Source: a virus
Lineage: Duplodnaviria > Caudoviricetes
DNA: 33,255 nt
Virus record (IMG/VR): IMGVR_UViG_3300001126_000011
Coordinates: 1 to 33,255 of that record
Reading direction: 5' to 3' (one strand)
Shown here: positions 22,118-29,933 of the stretch, in pieces
Layout of the letters: every line of letters starts with the position of its first letter
Position numbering within the stretch: the first letter of the stretch is position 1
Notes under the pieces: model-generated
What the model was told of the DNA's origin: nothing
Databases searched by the model: none
What the model saw: the letters and a program-made list of their open reading frames with translations, nothing else
Translations under genes and position numbers: made by a program

Positions 22118-22418
22118 TACCACCTACCTTGCCACTGCCTTTGATGGGCTTGCCTGTGACAAGGCGCAAGATGGCATTGATAAACGCCACACCTGTTGCC
22201 AGTACACCGTAGACCTCAGGGGTCATTAGCGCCTCAAGGCTAGGCGTAGCAGCCGTTGCCAGCGTCATCGCAGTGATGATGAGATTAAACCAGATGGTTT
22301 TGGACTCGTACCATGCCTTATGCTCAGGCGTGGGTATGGGCTGATTAGTGGTTGGCGAGGTCTGGGGGAGTCCAGCATGGCTTACCTCATGAGGGAATGG
22401 TTCAACATGATCGGACAT
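22110..22418 (-). CDS. Putative holin
   Basis: WYESKTIWFN plus two TM segments and LR.VT..PI; adjacent to endolysin. Confidence 0.7.
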   Translation of the reverse strand: MSDHVEPFPHEVSHAGLPQTSPTTNQPIPTPEHKAWYESKTIWFNLIITAMTLATAATPSLEALMTPEVYGVLATGVAFINAILRLVTGKPIKGSGKVGGNG

Positions 22419-23215
22419 TACCAGCCCTCCTGCTTAGCTTTTTTATAGGCCGCTGCGAGCTTGGTATCGTACTTATTCGCCTTGTAGCCTTCACCGTTAT
22501 AGCGCAAGGCAAACCCAGCCCAGTCATTACGCTGTATCTCATCGACTAAGCCGTTGACCTTGATGTATCGACACATAGCATCTATCTGCGCAGCCTCCGA
22601 CTCATGCATCGCATCTATGAAAGCCTTGAGCGATGGGTACTTTAGATCTTGCCAATTAAAGCCCATGACCTGACCCTTACCCCAGCTACACGCCATGTGT
22701 GCGGCGTCCCAGTCCAGCACTGCTGCAACGGCTAGCTTGTCATGTTGTGGACGCACGTTATACAGCGAGCGATCCCATGTGCGGCTTACCATGTCAGGAA
22801 ATAGCGTTTGTAGCTGATCACGCTTGGTAATGATATTGGCGCGTGTGAGGTACTTGTAATAGATATGCGGCTCAAACAGGATCGTTGGACGGCCTTCATC
22901 GTCGAAGCCGTCCATTGGGCACTCAACGTCTATGATCGATTTTAGGGCAGCGGCTTCGACGCCTAGACCTTTGGCACTAGCGACAATATCAGCACGAGTT
23001 AGCACAGGTAAAGTGACACTAGCGCCAGCCCCAGCTTGTACGGCAATAGCACTACCAAAAATAGTAATGATCTCTTGAAGGTCAGCAGGATTTATAGGGC
23101 GAAATATTGTATTGACTAGATCAACGATATCTTGAGTCAAACCATATTCATCCAGCATTGTTTTAGACCAGTCAAAAAACGCTTTATCGGTCATTATTGG
23201 TTTGTTATTAGACAT
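22418..23215 (-). CDS. Endolysin, N-acetylmuramidase (DUF3380 family)
   Basis: IIDVE, ILFEPH, SWGKGQVMGFNW, FA..YNG.GY..N.YD.KL..AY. Confidence 0.92.
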   Translation of the reverse strand: MSNNKPIMTDKAFFDWSKTMLDEYGLTQDIVDLVNTIFRPINPADLQEIITIFGSAIAVQAGAGASVTLPVLTRADIVASAKGLGVEAAALKSIIDVECPMDGFDDEGRPTILFEPHIYYKYLTRANIITKRDQLQTLFPDMVSRTWDRSLYNVRPQHDKLAVAAVLDWDAAHMACSWGKGQVMGFNWQDLKYPSLKAFIDAMHESEAAQIDAMCRYIKVNGLVDEIQRNDWAGFALRYNGEGYKANKYDTKLAAAYKKAKQEGW

Positions 23216-23250
23216 AAAAAAACCTGTTAGCTTATTATTGCTAACAGGTT
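23216..23250 (-). terminator. Terminator hairpin enclosing the endolysin RBS
   Basis: AACCTGTTAGC-AATAATAA-GCTAACAGGTT-TTTTT-ATG; perfect 11-bp stem. Confidence 0.8.
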
Positions 23251-23335: not shown

Positions 23336-24130
23336 TCAAACCGCATCTATTGTAAAGAACAGTCCGCCCAAGCCCTCAGAGTAGTTTGCAGCGTAGCTGG
23401 CATTACCAATCACGCGCTTTTGGCTCTCGCCTTTATTATCGATAGCGGCAGGAATTATATCAAGTATTGCTTGACTGACTTCCTCTTTAGCGACTGAGCC
23501 ATTAACAGCATTGGCGGCAGCCAGACTCATTGCGATTACCTTTAGATTTTCTGTGCCAGTGCCGTTACCACCAATAGCTAAAATGATGCCGCGTAGCTTA
23601 CCGTCGTCGGTGATGATACCAGACATACTAGCGTTATTAGGCATAGGCGCATAGCTTACCGATTGACCGTTATCAATACCATTAATAATTAGATTTTTAT
23701 CCGCTTTTGCGATGATGGCATTGTAGTTTTTGACAAACTGGTCAGAGGTGAGATCAAAGTCAGGTAGTGTGTTTTTGACCTCAATAGGCTCAGCTTCAAC
23801 TGCTGGCTCAACTGCTTTTGGCGTCTCTTTAACTTCGGCTATTTCAGGCGTGGCTACAGGCTGCGGTTCAGGTTTGGCGGGTTCTGTCTTATCAACTGGT
23901 TCATCAACAGCGGCGGTTAGCTCATCGTCTACAGCGGGCAACATCGCACCGCCAATCCCTAAGCACAGTACGCTTGCCACGATACTAAACACCGCGATTT
24001 GCATACGGCTGGCATGAGTCTTGTCTGGTTTTTTGATCAGGCTTGGCTTAATTAGACCCACGATTAATATCAAAGGGAAAACAATCACGCCAAATAATAC
24101 CAACAACCCACCAAAAAACTCCATGCTCAC
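23336..24130 (-). CDS. Inner-membrane protein, two N-terminal TMs, Pro/Glu linker and extracytoplasmic domain (lysogenic conversion gene)
   Basis: Hydrophobic segments near aa 4-27 and 44-64, EPAKPEPQP linker; TAGGAG RBS; third gene of repressor operon. Confidence 0.75.
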   Translation of the reverse strand: MSMEFFGGLLVLFGVIVFPLILIVGLIKPSLIKKPDKTHASRMQIAVFSIVASVLCLGIGGAMLPAVDDELTAAVDEPVDKTEPAKPEPQPVATPEIAEVKETPKAVEPAVEAEPIEVKNTLPDFDLTSDQFVKNYNAIIAKADKNLIINGIDNGQSVSYAPMPNNASMSGIITDDGKLRGIILAIGGNGTGTENLKVIAMSLAAANAVNGSVAKEEVSQAILDIIPAAIDNKGESQKRVIGNASYAANYSEGLGGLFFTIDAV

Positions 24131-24139
24131 TCCTAATGA

Positions 24140-24562
24140 TTAATTTAATTGATACAACCGTTTTCTAAAGACTTCTTTACGCTGCTGAAGCTTACCAAGA
24201 TAAGCGCTCAATAAAGCGCAAATAGCAAAGCTAACGACAGCCAACCACATCACATTTATCCAAAAAGACAATAACATAACAAGTGCTGTACCTATTAGCC
24301 ATAAGCTATATTTATCAATCTGATGACTCATATAACCGATCTCTCGCCGCAACCGTCTACACTCTAACTCACCTTTAATATCTGCTCCGCAATGCACACA
24401 GTCTGGTGTATTTCGCCATGTATGTTGCTCGCATTGATGGCACTTTATTGCGTTTTGATGATATGGCGGTGGTGCGACACGCCCAAAATACACGTCGCCT
24501 TCATGTGTTCCCTGATTGATATAGCCATGATTTTCAGGCCAGTTATCGGGACTACTTGCCAA
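24140..24562 (-). CDS. Zinc-ribbon membrane protein with N-terminal motif shared with repressor C-terminus
   Basis: TTG start with GAGGTG RBS overlapping repressor stop; NHGYINQG motif; CHQC-x10-CVHCG; two TM helices. Confidence 0.75.
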   Translation of the reverse strand: MASSPDNWPENHGYINQGTHEGDVYFGRVAPPPYHQNAIKCHQCEQHTWRNTPDCVHCGADIKGELECRRLRREIGYMSHQIDKYSLWLIGTALVMLLSFWINVMWLAVVSFAICALLSAYLGKLQQRKEVFRKRLYQLN

Positions 24563-24613
24563 AATTCACCTCACCTTTATGCCTGCCTTGATTGATATAG
24601 CCATGATTATCAG
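24483..24613. repeat. 55-bp imperfect direct repeat (24483-24537 and 24559-24613)
   Basis: 46/55 identical by hand alignment, 20-bp exact core TGATTGATATAGCCATGATT. Confidence 0.92.
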
Positions 24614-25001
24614 TCGTATTATTAGGTGCGTTATTGATAGTCGCTGCGCCGCCACTGACTGATCCTATGCTGCCGCTATCGACTGTTTGTTTAGCATGAC
24701 TGCCAGCGCCGAGTAGTAACATCAATACTTGATTCTGAGTATCGTTATCTGCTTGATCATATTTCTCTAGTATGAGTGCTTTGTCATTACCCACACTCAC
24801 ATTACGCCCATGCACCAAATAATCAAGCGAATATCCCGTCATTTCTTGCAATTTTATCAGAAAACTAATGTCTGGTGAGCGTTCATCATTCTCATAGCGC
24901 TGTAGCGTGGCTGTTCCTACGCCTGTTTTATCGGCAAAAACCTTTCTAGACTCCTTACCTCTGATTGCAAAGATACGTTGTCCCAAAGTTAAACCAGCCA
25001 T
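24552..25001 (-). CDS. XRE-family HTH prophage repressor with low-complexity C-terminal tail
   Basis: LGQRI..IRG..SRK.FA...GV...TLQRYE..ERSP...SLDYLV.G; divergent from Ner-like gene; no S24 peptidase domain. Confidence 0.88.
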   Translation of the reverse strand: MAGLTLGQRIFAIRGKESRKVFADKTGVGTATLQRYENDERSPDISFLIKLQEMTGYSLDYLVHGRNVSVGNDKALILEKYDQADNDTQNQVLMLLLGAGSHAKQTVDSGSIGSVSGGAATINNAPNNTTDNHGYINQGRHKGEVNFGK

Positions 25002-25014
25002 AGCTACCTACCTT

Positions 25015-25034
25015 TTTAATCATTTTTGATAAAA
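25015..25034. promoter_or_regulatory. Putative operator O1
   Basis: TTTAATC-N6-GATAAAA, one mismatch to O2, 32 bp away. Confidence 0.6.
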
Positions 25035-25039
25035 TTTCA

Positions 25040-25068
25040 TTGACTATTTAATCCGAATGGATTAAATT
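25040..25068 (+). promoter_or_regulatory. Early promoter (TTGACT-17-TAAATT) overlapped by operator O2 (ATTTAATCC-gaat-GGATTAAAT, 25046-25067)
   Basis: Near-consensus sigma70 boxes with perfect 9-bp inverted repeat in spacer and -10. Confidence 0.72.
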
Positions 25069-25123: not shown

Positions 25124-25375
25124 ATGGCTACTAACACCGCAGCACCAACTGAACCTCAAACACCAAATCAATTTCGCAAGCAGCTCATTGATCAAGGATT
25201 GACACTAAAAGAATGGGCAGAAGCGCGGAACTACAATCCCGAATACTGCTCTCGTGTCCTAACTGGTCTTGTTAAAGGCACACGCGGCAAGGGGCATGAT
25301 ATTGCTGTTGCTATGGGTATCAAAGCTGATTTATCAGCCAAACCTCAAACAACTGTTAACGAGGTGAACGTATGA
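25124..25375 (+). CDS. Ner/Cro-like DNA-binding protein (BcepMu gp16-like)
   Basis: G.TLKEWA, VL.G..KG.RGKGHDIAVAMGIK. Confidence 0.88.
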   Translation: MATNTAAPTEPQTPNQFRKQLIDQGLTLKEWAEARNYNPEYCSRVLTGLVKGTRGKGHDIAVAMGIKADLSAKPQTTVNEVNV

Positions 25376-25740
25376 AATTGTTTACTAAACCCCAGCCAAC
25401 GGGCGCAAGTCCGCTCCATCTGAACAATAAAGAGCTACGCCGTGAATTGGCTTATGCCGACACGATCATTGCCAATATTGAATCGATCATTATTGATGAG
25501 CAAAAGGGTTGCCTTGAAGATATGAACGCTATCAATGCAAATGCTACTTCATCAGATCCTTTTAGAAGCGAATCACGTAAGCGAGTAATGCACCGCATTA
25601 CCCCAAAGCGTGACTACCTCAAAATCATACTGATAGCGCTGTGTATTTTACTAGGTTTTGCATGGTACACCGCCCAACAAGAGCGTGATTTCTTTATGCA
25701 ACAAACAGCAAAAGGAGGACAACATGGCTCAATCCACTAA
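25372..25740 (+). CDS. Hypothetical early protein with C-terminal TM helix
   Basis: GAGGTG RBS, ATGA overlap, IILIALCILLGFAWY. Confidence 0.7.
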   Translation: MKLFTKPQPTGASPLHLNNKELRRELAYADTIIANIESIIIDEQKGCLEDMNAINANATSSDPFRSESRKRVMHRITPKRDYLKIILIALCILLGFAWYTAQQERDFFMQQTAKGGQHGSIH

Positions 25741-26008
25741 ACGCGCCCTAAAAATCATCAAAGCAATGCGTAGCACCACTTTTAGCGGTATTAGCGTCAC
25801 CGAACTGGCACAGTCTGTCGGTACATCAGCAGTAAATATTTGCCGCGACCTAGACGATTTAATGGATGAAGGGATGGTCGAAAAACGTGATGACGGACGC
25901 TATCAGTTATCGGTTGCCATGCTGCAAATCGCCGCTGCGTATCAGACTGACTATAACCGCATGGCGAGCCGCTTAGCTGAAATCAATAATCGCATTAACA
26001 ATCATTGA
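25724..26008 (+). CDS. IclR-type winged HTH protein
   Basis: AGGAGG RBS before ATG 25724; RALKIIKA, SVTELA..VG.S..NICRDL..L..EG.VEK..DGRYQLS. Confidence 0.82.
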   Translation: MAQSTKRALKIIKAMRSTTFSGISVTELAQSVGTSAVNICRDLDDLMDEGMVEKRDDGRYQLSVAMLQIAAAYQTDYNRMASRLAEINNRINNH

Positions 26009-27060: not shown

Positions 27061-28794
27061 ATGGATACCGCAACTCTCGACTATTTACGCACCATTGCCA
27101 AGCGCTTAGACAGTGCTAAACATGGCGAAAAGTCAGCCATCGTTGAGCTAGCAGCAGCATACCTGTGTTGCTCAAACAAACAAGTCTATCAACTGCTAAA
27201 AGATGCAGGGCTTACCACGCCGCGTAAAACTCGCACGGACAAAGGTGAGTCTATCATCACCCGCGCTCAAGCCGAGCTGATCGGCGGCATGATATTAGTC
27301 GCCACCCGTGCCAATGGCAAGCAAATCTTATCGGTCACTGACGCGGCTGAAATGCTAAAGGCACAAGGCAAAATCCCAGACGTGGCCGTTAGTACCATAC
27401 TACGAGCGCTAAAGGCCTACCACTGCCACCCAAGCCAGTTAGCAACACCGACAGCGCACGTCACCCAGCGCAGTTTGCATCCCAATCATGTCTGGCAAAT
27501 AGACGCCTCAGTCTGCGTGCTGTTTTATTTGCCAAAAGGTGGATTGGCAGTGATGGAGCAAAAGGAATTTTATAAAAACAAACCTGCCAATGTCAAAAAG
27601 ATTGAGAAAGAGCGCGTCATTCGCTACGTCGTCACCGACCATTACAGCGCCGCCACTTACGTGGAATACGTCATGGGTGCAGAGTCTAGCGAGAACTTAA
27701 CGCAAGTTTTTCTAAACTCCATCCAGCGCCGCGACGCCAATGATCCCATGCATGGCGTCCCAAACATCCTAGTCATGGATAAAGGTAGCGCCAACTTATC
27801 AGGCTTATTTCTTAACTTACTGGATCGCCTTGGCGTTGAGCATATCGAACACGCCGCAGGCAATAGCCGCGCCAAAGGACAGGTCGAAAAGCACAACGAC
27901 ATCGTCGAGTGCAAGTTTGAGAGCCGCTTGTCTTTTTTGAACATCAGATCACTAGATGAGCTAAACGCCTACTGCACTAAGTGGCGCGCGCACTTTAATG
28001 CTAATGCCGTGCACAGCCGCACTCGTCAGACGCGCAACGCCATATGGCTCACGATTACCAATCAGCAGCTGCGGTTAGCGCCGTCATTAGAGATATGCCG
28101 CGAGCTGGTCACGACCAAGCCTAAAACCGTCAAAGTGCGTGGCGACTTGACCATTACTCATACCGTAAAAGGCTATGCAAACCAAGCCTACGACCTGACG
28201 CATCTGCCTGATATCTACCCCAAAGCCGAGATCGATATCGTCGTCAACCCTTACCGCGCCCCTGATATTGATGTCACTTGGCTAGATACCGTTTACACCA
28301 TTAGCCCAGTAGAGACTGACGCCGCAGGTTTTGCCATTCATGCGCCCGTCATTGGTGTACAGATGATTGCCAAGCCTGAGAGCCAAGCTGATAGCAACCG
28401 CAAAGCCATGATGAAAGCCGCTTATGGCGCGGATACCGAAAGCGAAGTCGATAAAGCCCGTAAGCAAAAACAAGCCGCTTACGTCGGTACAGTCGACGCG
28501 ATGGCAGACGTTGATAATAGCTATAGCGATGGGAACGTGCCAAACGTCATTACCAAAGCTGCGCAGACCGTAGACACCAGCGCCCACGTCGCCAGCCGTG
28601 AGGTCAAGCCATACACCCATGTTGAAGCCGCCATGCAATTGCGCGGATTACTTGGTAGCCAGTGGACAAGTGACCACTTTGCCGACTTGCAAAAGCAATA
28701 TCCACAAGGTGTACCACACAGCGCCATTAACGAGATTGCAGACCGCATCGTCATGGGCAAACCAGTTACCTATTTAAAAGCAGTTAATGAGTAG
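27061..28794 (+). CDS. Transposase A (DDE integrase family)
   Basis: PNHVWQIDAS, VMDKGSAN, AKGQVEK..DIVE catalytic motifs; RKTRTDKG. Confidence 0.94.
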   Translation: MDTATLDYLRTIAKRLDSAKHGEKSAIVELAAAYLCCSNKQVYQLLKDAGLTTPRKTRTDKGESIITRAQAELIGGMILVATRANGKQILSVTDAAEMLKAQGKIPDVAVSTILRALKAYHCHPSQLATPTAHVTQRSLHPNHVWQIDASVCVLFYLPKGGLAVMEQKEFYKNKPANVKKIEKERVIRYVVTDHYSAATYVEYVMGAESSENLTQVFLNSIQRRDANDPMHGVPNILVMDKGSANLSGLFLNLLDRLGVEHIEHAAGNSRAKGQVEKHNDIVECKFESRLSFLNIRSLDELNAYCTKWRAHFNANAVHSRTRQTRNAIWLTITNQQLRLAPSLEICRELVTTKPKTVKVRGDLTITHTVKGYANQAYDLTHLPDIYPKAEIDIVVNPYRAPDIDVTWLDTVYTISPVETDAAGFAIHAPVIGVQMIAKPESQADSNRKAMMKAAYGADTESEVDKARKQKQAAYVGTVDAMADVDNSYSDGNVPNVITKAAQTVDTSAHVASREVKPYTHVEAAMQLRGLLGSQWTSDHFADLQKQYPQGVPHSAINEIADRIVMGKPVTYLKAVNE

Positions 28795-28814: not shown

Positions 28815-29933
28815 ATGCAACACGTCAAACAATTATTAAAGGACAACGGCATCAGCCAGCGCAATTTGGCCAGCCATTTAAGCGTTAGCCCTGCTGCCGT
28901 CAATCTGATTTTGAACCACGACCAATACCCAGCAGCGTCAGCCAAGAGCGTCATTGTTAACAGTATTAACCAGTTTTTAACCAATCACGGCATCAAATTT
29001 GACCATCCAAAACCAACCAATAACTTAGAGGAAGACCTTATGTTACTTCGCAAACAAACCCTAACCCAGCCAGCACGTAAGCAGTTCAAGTTATTTACCA
29101 ACCCGTTCACCAGTGACATTCGCAGTGCGGACGAACTTTATCAGTCAAGCGATACCGCATACGTACGCGCCGCCATGCACCATACCGCAAAACATGGCGG
29201 CTTCATCGCAGTCACTGGCGAGTCGGGCGCAGGGAAAACCACGTTAAAGCGTGACCTCATTGACCGTCTCAAGCGTGAGAACCAATCCATCATCACCATT
29301 GAGCCGTACGTGTTAGCCGCTGAAGACAACGATATGAAAGGAAAAACGCTAAAAGCTGCGCATATTGCCGAAGCCATCTTGCACGCGCTAAGCCCACTCG
29401 ACAACCCAAAGCGCAGCCCTGAAGCCCGTTTCCGTCAAGTGCATAACTTACTACGTGAGTCGCACAAAGCAGGCAACAGCCATGTACTGATTATTGAAGA
29501 GGCGCACAGCTTACCGATTCCAACCCTTAAGCACCTCAAACGCTTTTTTGAACTAGAAGACGGTTACGACAAGCTTTTAGGTATTGTCTTAATTGGACAA
29601 AACGAGCTGACGGTCAAAATGTCTGAACGAAACCCATCTATCCGCGAAGTGGTCCAGCGTTGTGAGATTGTCACCCTAGAGCCGATAGCTCCCAGCGAAC
29701 TATCAAGCTATCTTGCCAAGCGTTTGGGCAAGCAGTCCGAGCTTAGCGGCATCATTGATGAGTCTGGCATTGACGCCATGGTAAACCGCTTGGTGCGCAC
29801 CGATAACAAGGGGCGCGTCATGCAAAGCCTGCTATATCCGCTAGCTGTCGGCAACCTTATTACTGGCGCAATGAATATGGCAGCAGACCTAGGCGTACCC
29901 ACTGTCACCCGCGACATCATTATGAATGTTTAA
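28815..29933 (+). CDS. Transposition B protein: N-terminal HTH plus ExeA-like AAA+ ATPase
   Basis: GISQRNLA..L.VSPAAV HTH, GESGAGKTT Walker A, LIIEEAH Walker B, REVVQRCE. Confidence 0.93.
   Translation: MQHVKQLLKDNGISQRNLASHLSVSPAAVNLILNHDQYPAASAKSVIVNSINQFLTNHGIKFDHPKPTNNLEEDLMLLRKQTLTQPARKQFKLFTNPFTSDIRSADELYQSSDTAYVRAAMHHTAKHGGFIAVTGESGAGKTTLKRDLIDRLKRENQSIITIEPYVLAAEDNDMKGKTLKAAHIAEAILHALSPLDNPKRSPEARFRQVHNLLRESHKAGNSHVLIIEEAHSLPIPTLKHLKRFFELEDGYDKLLGIVLIGQNELTVKMSERNPSIREVVQRCEIVTLEPIAPSELSSYLAKRLGKQSELSGIIDESGIDAMVNRLVRTDNKGRVMQSLLYPLAVGNLITGAMNMAADLGVPTVTRDIIMNV

Follow-up and report, generated by a model that had tools for sequence, protein, structure and literature searches.

The window analysed here, a stretch of viral DNA taken at its full length of 33,255 nucleotides, is by its gene content a B3/Mu-like transposable tailed phage. 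Its plus strand carries genes for a DDE transposase, 41% identical to the transposase of phage B3, and for a transposition ATPase, and its minus strand encodes endolysin, terminase, portal, head, sheath, and tape-measure proteins (PHROG assignments). The immunity region is arranged as in B3/Mu-like phages, with the repressor gene divergent from a ner-like gene and upstream of the transposase and the ATPase. Since the named relatives of the repressor come from Acinetobacter and Faucicola, the host is likely a member of the Moraxellaceae. The repressor, a zinc-ribbon membrane protein (hereafter, the partner), and a third gene probably form a three-gene lysogenic operon; two runs labeled as RNA give no coverage of the repressor/partner pair. 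The features of the region are as follows:

23221..23250, minus strand: terminator-like hairpin separating the three-gene unit from the endolysin gene (11-bp stem and T run; consensus match only)
23336..24124, minus strand: third gene, a membrane-anchored protein of unknown function (phrog_23546, E 1.6e-9)
24140..24562, minus strand: partner, 140 aa, read from a TTG; in order, the motif, a spacer rich in proline, the Cys4 zinc ribbon, a long helix, and a hairpin of hydrophobic helices
24194..24310, minus strand: two predicted transmembrane helices of the partner joined by a very short loop, about residues 85-123 (Kyte-Doolittle up to 2.1-2.3)
24389..24442, minus strand: CxxC-x10-CxxC zinc ribbon (C41/C44/C55/C58, W49), invariant in 46 aligned homologs
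24479..24535, minus strand: partner N-terminal motif, E10-R28 (codon comparison)
24552..25001, minus strand: XRE/HTH_3 immunity repressor, 149 aa, divergent from the ner-like gene (Pfam HTH_3 E 8.6e-10; PHROG 8/3037)
24555..24611, minus strand: repressor C-terminal motif, D131-K149 (codon-by-codon comparison)
24567..24572, minus strand: Shine-Dalgarno-like GAGGTG, putatively serving the partner, within the repressor motif codons (sequence)
24612..24704, minus strand: linker rich in G, S, and N, residues 100-130; a weaker G-x-V/I-x-G unit occupies 110-118 (sequence; pLDDT <50)
25012..25068, no strand assigned: candidate operators, two imperfect palindromes at a distance of 32 bp from each other, located between the repressor and the ner-like gene (sequence)
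25124..25375, plus strand: ner-like HTH gene, which opens the early operon (PHROG 925)
27061..28794 and 28815..29933, plus strand: transposase and transposition ATPase of the early operon (PHROG 310 and 296)

Two further observations concern the surroundings of the operon. In contigs of several wastewater runs, the early genes (window 25236-25800) are covered far more deeply than the repressor operon; because of this depth step and of loose ends near 25231, the early genes read as common to related phages whose immunity cassettes differ. The endolysin (window 22418-23215; N-acetylmuramidase family, PF11860) has an additional N-terminal stretch of about 65-85 residues with no family match.

The repressor, the partner, and their shared motif

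The repressor ends in DNHGYINQGRHKGEVNFGK, directly before its stop codon. AlphaFold2 places helices up to residue 99 (the HTH domain and two more, 72-99) and leaves residues 100-149 as a disordered tail with pLDDT below 50. The first-pass annotation had described a repressor without an S24 autocleavage domain, whose motif follows a G/S/N-rich low-complexity linker, and both points held: Pfam returned HTH families only and no peptidase, the linker spans residues 100-130, and the C-terminal S24 peptidase of self-cleaving LexA/lambda CI-type repressors is absent by Pfam and AlphaFold2 alike. It had also proposed RecA-independent control. The S24 domain is indeed missing, but RecA-independence is general among Mu-like repressors and does not follow from the motif module. 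Within the repressor motif, the core NxGYINxG..G.V.F is invariant across 10 aligned repressors, one of them only 28% identical, and the sequence contains a 9-residue internal repeat (DNHGYINQG/RHKGEVNFG).

The partner begins with MASSPDNWPENHGYINQGTHEGDVYFGR, and its TTG start overlaps the last 11 nt of the repressor gene. GAGGTG lies 4 nt upstream of the TTG, and no ATG precedes the zinc ribbon. A start downstream of the motif would have removed the motif from the protein; the evidence is against it, given the GAGGTG and the presence of the motif in all nine non-self close homologs, whose starts are gene-caller predictions. A fusion of the two products by frameshifting within the 11-nt overlap was also considered; at other loci, the two genes lie apart and the partner has its own ATG. 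The partner motif is also present in five homologs at about 30% identity and, like the repressor tail, has low pLDDT in the AlphaFold2 monomer, although the partner as a whole is modeled at pLDDT 88.

The partner belongs to phrog_17537 (function unknown, E 1e-8). Its CxxC-x10-CxxC cysteines and two transmembrane helices are as originally read, the latter as a predicted hydrophobic hairpin: AlphaFold2 helices 62-102 and 105-139 are modeled as a helical hairpin, whose loop appears too short for an evident periplasmic sensor, which makes the envelope coupling of the first-pass annotation speculative. Zinc binding is probable from the cysteine pattern, for which Pfam gives a weak DZR_2 match. The spacing is common to RanBP2-type Cys4 zinc fingers and DZR_2, and homology to these was not significant (7mnv_B, a weak structural row, E 1.0; Pfam DZR_2 E 0.04). 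Foldseek searches of PDB and BFVD gave no match at E<=0.001 (best 3e-3) and no toxin or defense-type fold, and the ESM Atlas returned only unnamed clusters, below 0.9. No repressor-zinc-ribbon fusion was found among the 46 representatives or among proteins of 281-2000 aa, with 262-280 aa covered by the representatives alone. One branch of the partner family starts with a motif of the type K-V/I-x-R-L/M-P/F, followed by a long proline-rich linker (P0064, P0066, P0069, P0070, P0072, P0074, P0075, P0082, P0083, P0085, P0087, P0088, P0090, P0096, and P0100).

Comparing the two proteins, we recovered the 13 of 17 identical residues first noted between NHGYINQGRHKGEVNFG (repressor) and NHGYINQGTHEGDVYFG (partner), the four synonymous differences (CAA/CAG, GGC/GGA, GGT/GGC, and GGC/GGG), and the lysine/glutamate exchange at one position. 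The motif DNA is identical at 44 of 57 nt over 19 codons, including an 18-nt run. Among 1,980 tail/head combinations of the 45 window genes, the repressor tail and the partner head scored highest (95; next, 41), and none of 1,000 shuffles reached this score. The 33-kb window holds no third copy of the motif (next best score 38 vs 94). A short motif is thus shared by the C-terminus of one product and the N-terminus of the adjacent product, the layout of amyloid signaling pairs.

Co-variation of the motifs across loci

To compare loci, we assembled 50 of them: the window, seven found through the repressor (near-duplicates omitted), and 42 found through a DNA pattern for the zinc ribbon. The pattern yielded 67 loci, 64 with an open frame, from which 15 were dropped at <=20 bits against the partner profile and seven for want of an HTH gene directly upstream. 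An HTH-type gene was therefore present directly upstream of 42 of the 49 family-like partners; 37 of these had a Pfam HTH match, three were recognized by our own repressor profile only, and two by eye. The 50 loci collapse into 31 non-redundant repressor/partner clusters, which are not phylogenetically independent. Heads were cut from stop-to-stop frames, so that some loci include residues ahead of the true start, which adds noise. In a separate genome sampling, the repressor was found in 3 of 401 genomes and the partner in 3 of 401, two of the latter weak and unused.

Cognate tails and heads scored 39.2 on average, compared with 22.2 for non-cognate combinations (31 clusters; 0 of 100,000 permutations). 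The main refutation set beforehand was that homologous loci lack the paired motif, leaving a one-off local duplication in the window. This is ruled out: the motifs co-vary across the 31 clusters, independently of repressor ancestry and with silent sites randomized. As in amyloid signaling pairs, motifs are matched within pairs; 7 of the 31 clusters show no match. In a post hoc split by the pattern of a helical tail, 24 clusters gave 45.7 vs 24.3 (0 of 100,000), and the seven helical-tail clusters gave 16.9 cognate vs 17.9 non-cognate (75,798 of 100,000), keeping the zinc-ribbon partner without a matched motif. Because these seven retain it, the partner, judged by its sequence distribution, has a role or docking mode that is independent of the match. 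Taken one by one, 16 of the 31 clusters were strong (score matched or exceeded by no more than 10 of 1,000 shuffles), and 8 of the 24 non-helical clusters were individually weak; a shuffle p near 0.005 can arise by chance, as in phage Fc22, which has no pair and gave 6 of 1,000 at score 31. Eight hand-picked Moraxellaceae-type loci (seven of one repressor family and L094) scored 56.4 vs 25.9 (2 of 100,000).

As the clusters are not independent, contrasts between individual loci weigh more. The window and L001 have repressor cores that are 63% identical and unrelated motifs, with cross scores of 23 and 18 vs cognate scores of 95 and 38. Conversely, the window and L126 have repressor cores that are only 22% identical and the same motif, with cross scores of 85 and 74. 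Between L002 and L029, partner bodies are 54% identical and motifs differ (cross scores 21 and 21 vs cognate 39 and 80). Motif type is decoupled from repressor ancestry. Examples of matched tail/head pairs are FNIDNVSGGEVNGIKN/FNVNHVSGGNLTGIIN (L008), NNFNGGFGGDYVEGDK/HHFNGNFGGDYVEGDK (L029), and KVRTVRGDMVQRDKI/KVRDVHGDYVERDKF (L139).

The long DNA identity in the window (44/57 nt, with its 18-nt run), together with modular exchange in the region, is what one would expect if the 3' end of the repressor gene had repeatedly been copied into the next gene by local duplication or gene conversion, leaving a match without function. Across the 17 clusters scoring at least 35, however, 86 of 182 identical residues use the same codon, where a rough estimate of local codon usage predicts 81.1±6.4 (9 vs 6.6 in the window alone). 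Since silent sites are randomized, the match is kept at the protein level. The window motif type also persists in partners that are about 30% identical, and contigs of eight runs, which drop rare variants, show no joint between the two copies. A DNA-level by-product is hence largely refuted, and we regard it as barely credible.

In 11 of the 17 clusters the repressor motif is more basic than the partner motif, and in one it is less basic. Charge complementarity was considered as a general rule and rejected, as most charged residues that align have the same sign (39, vs 11 of opposite sign).

Rather than touching each other, the two proteins might carry a common tag recognized by a third factor, such as a host protease or adaptor or a phage protein. 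The stability of the Mu repressor is controlled at its disordered C-terminal tail, a precedent for such a tag, and identical tags on co-expressed proteins would co-regulate them. A host receptor, however, poorly explains why related hosts hold unrelated motif types that are matched only within each phage, and the lack of a third copy in the 33-kb window also speaks against this account. We consider it very unlikely.

Several loci depart from the common arrangement. L090 (845-1782) and its relatives (L093, L095, L096, L101, L107, L114, L117, L129, L135, L137, L145, L150, and L153-155) encode repressors with a helical C-terminal domain ending in RILKLVVNR and zinc-ribbon partners whose N-terminus consists of a helix and a beta segment rich in G/N, which may represent a second mode of docking. 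In L084 (reverse strand, 1438-1992), the repressor tail carries two motif types in tandem, HGSVGSQMQAQGDI and then the window type, and the partner matches the last. L007 (3429-3920) has a repressor followed by a two-TM protein without a zinc ribbon, with a head/tail resemblance that is not significant (score 27). In L102, L103, and L149 (reverse-oriented, 0-312 and 1332-1644), a zinc-ribbon partner without TM segments is separated by about 1 kb of other DNA from an upstream repressor-like frame that ends in a motif. In 5 of the 31 clusters, the partner has no TM segment, and its W/R-rich end looks amphipathic by eye.

Alternative forms of the module in related phages

In 10 of 46 repressor homologs, a C-terminal hydrophobic two-helix region replaces the motif. 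The Mu-like repressors whose C-terminus is a pair of predicted TM helices (SGFTxLPF...) are P0020, P0022-24, P0031, P0033-35, P0044, P0051, and the one at L027:14-649; by sequence, they are candidate membrane-anchored phage repressors. P0020 differs from the window repressor at two of the first 124 residues and then diverges. Likewise, a contig of run X4 departs from the window sequence at 24631 and continues into the hydrophobic-helix allele, so that the switch point near 24631 falls inside the repressor linker. Because a near-identical repressor allele swaps the motif for hydrophobic helices, the sequences suggest two alternative routes to the membrane, the motif pair and a covalent anchor. 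The idea, put forward when the locus was first read, that the membrane protein binds or templates the repressor tail is thereby supported in part: the 10 hydrophobic-helix alleles favor tethering, indirectly. The fused hydrophobic region has no detectable homology to the partner (hhalign probability 4.4%) and no ESM Atlas match. The gene behind a fused repressor is visible in L027 only, where no partner is present; further fused-allele loci were found in 0 of 401 genomes, a search with no positive control.

Motif pairs of another type occur in cultured phages, namely B3 ORF18/ORF20 (score 51) and Ps59 gp17/gp18 (score 41). Their partners have no zinc ribbon and are annotated as hypothetical. 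The module that follows the motif in these partners has a homolog (score 90) at the start of the L090-type partner, where the first motif is absent, and the L090-type repressor lacks the tail motif. The window repressor and partner themselves have no tblastn match in cultured phages, and other partners used as queries gave none either. The pair is absent from Fc02 and from all five cultured phages chosen by transposase similarity (Fc22, U3, PhiKM, KP12, and Mae-JY22); Fc02, Fc22, and U3 have neither motif nor partner. The B3-like immunity region (B3, Ps59, and Fc02) otherwise resembles that of the window, with a repressor divergent from ner, followed by accessory membrane or lipoprotein genes before the lysis genes. 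According to the available sections of the Fc02 study (PMC9936078), the cloned repressor alone blocks infection and confers immunity, and the lysogen transcribes the repressor together with the gene behind it, which differs from the partner and is lipoprotein-like. Motif-like repressor tails with no matched gene within contigs of 2.4-3 kb were found in L025, L033/34, L035/36, and L037; the tails of L025 and L035 score 43-47 against the head of partner P0077, and in L025 a homolog of the third gene lies directly behind the partner-less repressor. Because Fc02-type phages lack the pair and some motif-bearing repressors lack a partner, the module is accessory and dispensable. The tail may serve first of all for self-association of the repressor.

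The dependence could also run in the reverse direction, with the partner a membrane-active toxin or an exclusion or abortive-infection effector that the repressor motif checks or triggers, so that cell fate is tied to the repressor level. A small two-helix membrane protein adjoining an HTH gene in an operon that lysogens probably express fits this proposal, as does the asymmetry whereby partners are rarely without an HTH neighbor (42 of 49 have one) and repressors are often without a partner; the transcription of the Fc02 gene behind the repressor, different and lipoprotein-like as it is, points the same way in the available part of PMC9936078. Against it, partners persist beside motif-less repressors in seven clusters, 5 of 31 lack a TM segment, and no toxin or defense-type fold matched at E<=0.001. 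We judge this direction quite unlikely.

Proposed mechanism and significance

Considered together, the sequences make it likely that the repressor motif and the partner motif bind each other, tying the dormancy switch to the membrane. We lean, by a little better than an even chance, toward a small regulatory tether in which the matched motifs hold the repressor at the membrane partner and lower the amount of free repressor. The G/N-rich motifs of both proteins, disordered as monomers, would co-assemble into a small beta-stack that tethers the repressor to the predicted inner-membrane zinc-ribbon protein, both ends of which would face the cytoplasm. The disorder in the monomer models speaks neither for nor against such a stack. 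The repressor tail would be a self-association element that the partner's copy joins, and the partner would probably be the less abundant species, given that its TTG start overlaps the repressor gene. Acting as a sink or a nucleator, it would draw the repressor off the operator on some cue and thereby favor induction or destabilize lysogeny, and the module would add an optional control on the amount of free repressor. Direction and signal are the weakest steps of the tether proposal. P22 Ant, VP882 Qtip, and Mlc-PtsG are known antirepressors or cases of transcription-factor sequestration; as proposed here, the partner in these systems removes the repressor from DNA without RecA-dependent cleavage. 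Unlike the window partner, those partners are not known to mirror the terminus of the repressor or to be encoded overlapping it in the repressor operon.

The closest likeness in layout is to amyloid signaling pairs. In the available parts of the reports on BASS1-10 (10.1101/2020.01.06.895854) and Bab/Agp BASS11 (10.1101/2024.11.07.622273), these pairs and fungal HET-S/NWD2 have adjacent, often overlapping genes, and a G/N/Q-rich motif of about 20 residues that closes the first product and opens the second, with several motif families, all as here; Bab/Agp pairs are also located in prophages (10.1101/2024.11.07.622273). The likeness is one of layout, any amyloid state of the window pair being hypothetical. 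The components differ: the C-terminal motif lies on a phage immunity repressor (XRE HTH) rather than on a death effector with a Bell/HeLo-like, TIR, or CHAT domain, and the N-terminal motif lies on a 140-aa zinc-ribbon membrane protein rather than on an NLR (NB-ARC/NACHT) or a TPR-GreA/B-PIN protein.

This likeness raises the prospect of a templated amyloid switch, in which an activated partner nucleates cross-beta polymerization of many repressor tails, so that repression would be lost or gained in an all-or-none and possibly heritable way. Besides the gene layout (10.1101/2020.01.06.895854; 10.1101/2024.11.07.622273, available parts), such a switch would fit the occurrence of several unrelated motif types, all rich in G/N/Q/aliphatic residues with periodic glycines, the disorder of the motifs as monomers, and the 9-residue internal repeat; the split and fused forms recall two-gene and all-in-one NLR architectures, as far as the available text on the latter goes. 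However, PHROG, Pfam, and Foldseek showed no death domain, whether NLR, TGP, Bell, or another, the partner has no evident oligomerizing sensor domain, and proline or an abundance of lysine occurs in some motif types (L002 and L094). The strict G-phi-Q-phi-G core of RHIM/BASS3/PP, as given in the available part of 10.1101/2020.01.06.895854, occurs in none of 24 tails and none of 24 heads; a loose [VI]GQ-phi pattern was found in five tails and two heads among the 24 clusters and is absent in the window. We therefore hold a templated switch to be unlikely. The broader proposition is similarly doubtful, namely that temperate phages co-opted amyloid signaling, with a membrane zinc-ribbon sensor templating repressor polymerization through a private, exchangeable motif code, one version of which B3 carries. 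If true, it would constitute an SOS-independent, all-or-none, and possibly heritable induction switch.

Our literature search, judged on titles and the openings of abstracts, with most subscription papers and the BASS/Bab-Agp supplementary motif tables, which may include motifs associated with HTH proteins, outside its scope, found no description of motif pairing between a repressor and a membrane partner. The word "repressor" occurs 0 times in the main text of 10.1101/2020.01.06.895854 and of 10.1101/2024.11.07.622273, and PMC12261475 gave 0 matches for phage, repressor, or HTH. The available portions of PMC3564109, on B3, contain nothing on the partner gene, and those of PMC9936078 no mention of the motif. 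The motif pairing of a repressor with a membrane partner is real, recurrent, and apparently undescribed, a paired-motif layout with different components.

To our knowledge, the natural inducers of Mu-like prophages are poorly known. A cognate, swappable peptide code between a repressor and a membrane protein suggests that the lysogeny switch has a so far undescribed input. Phage B3 and laboratory P. aeruginosa PAO1 allow this to be tested directly, and Fc02 supplies the natural null. Even a simple tether would provide a set of naturally orthogonal peptide pairs. If the motifs do stack in a cross-beta fashion, amyloid signaling would extend from cell-death effectors to a transcription factor.
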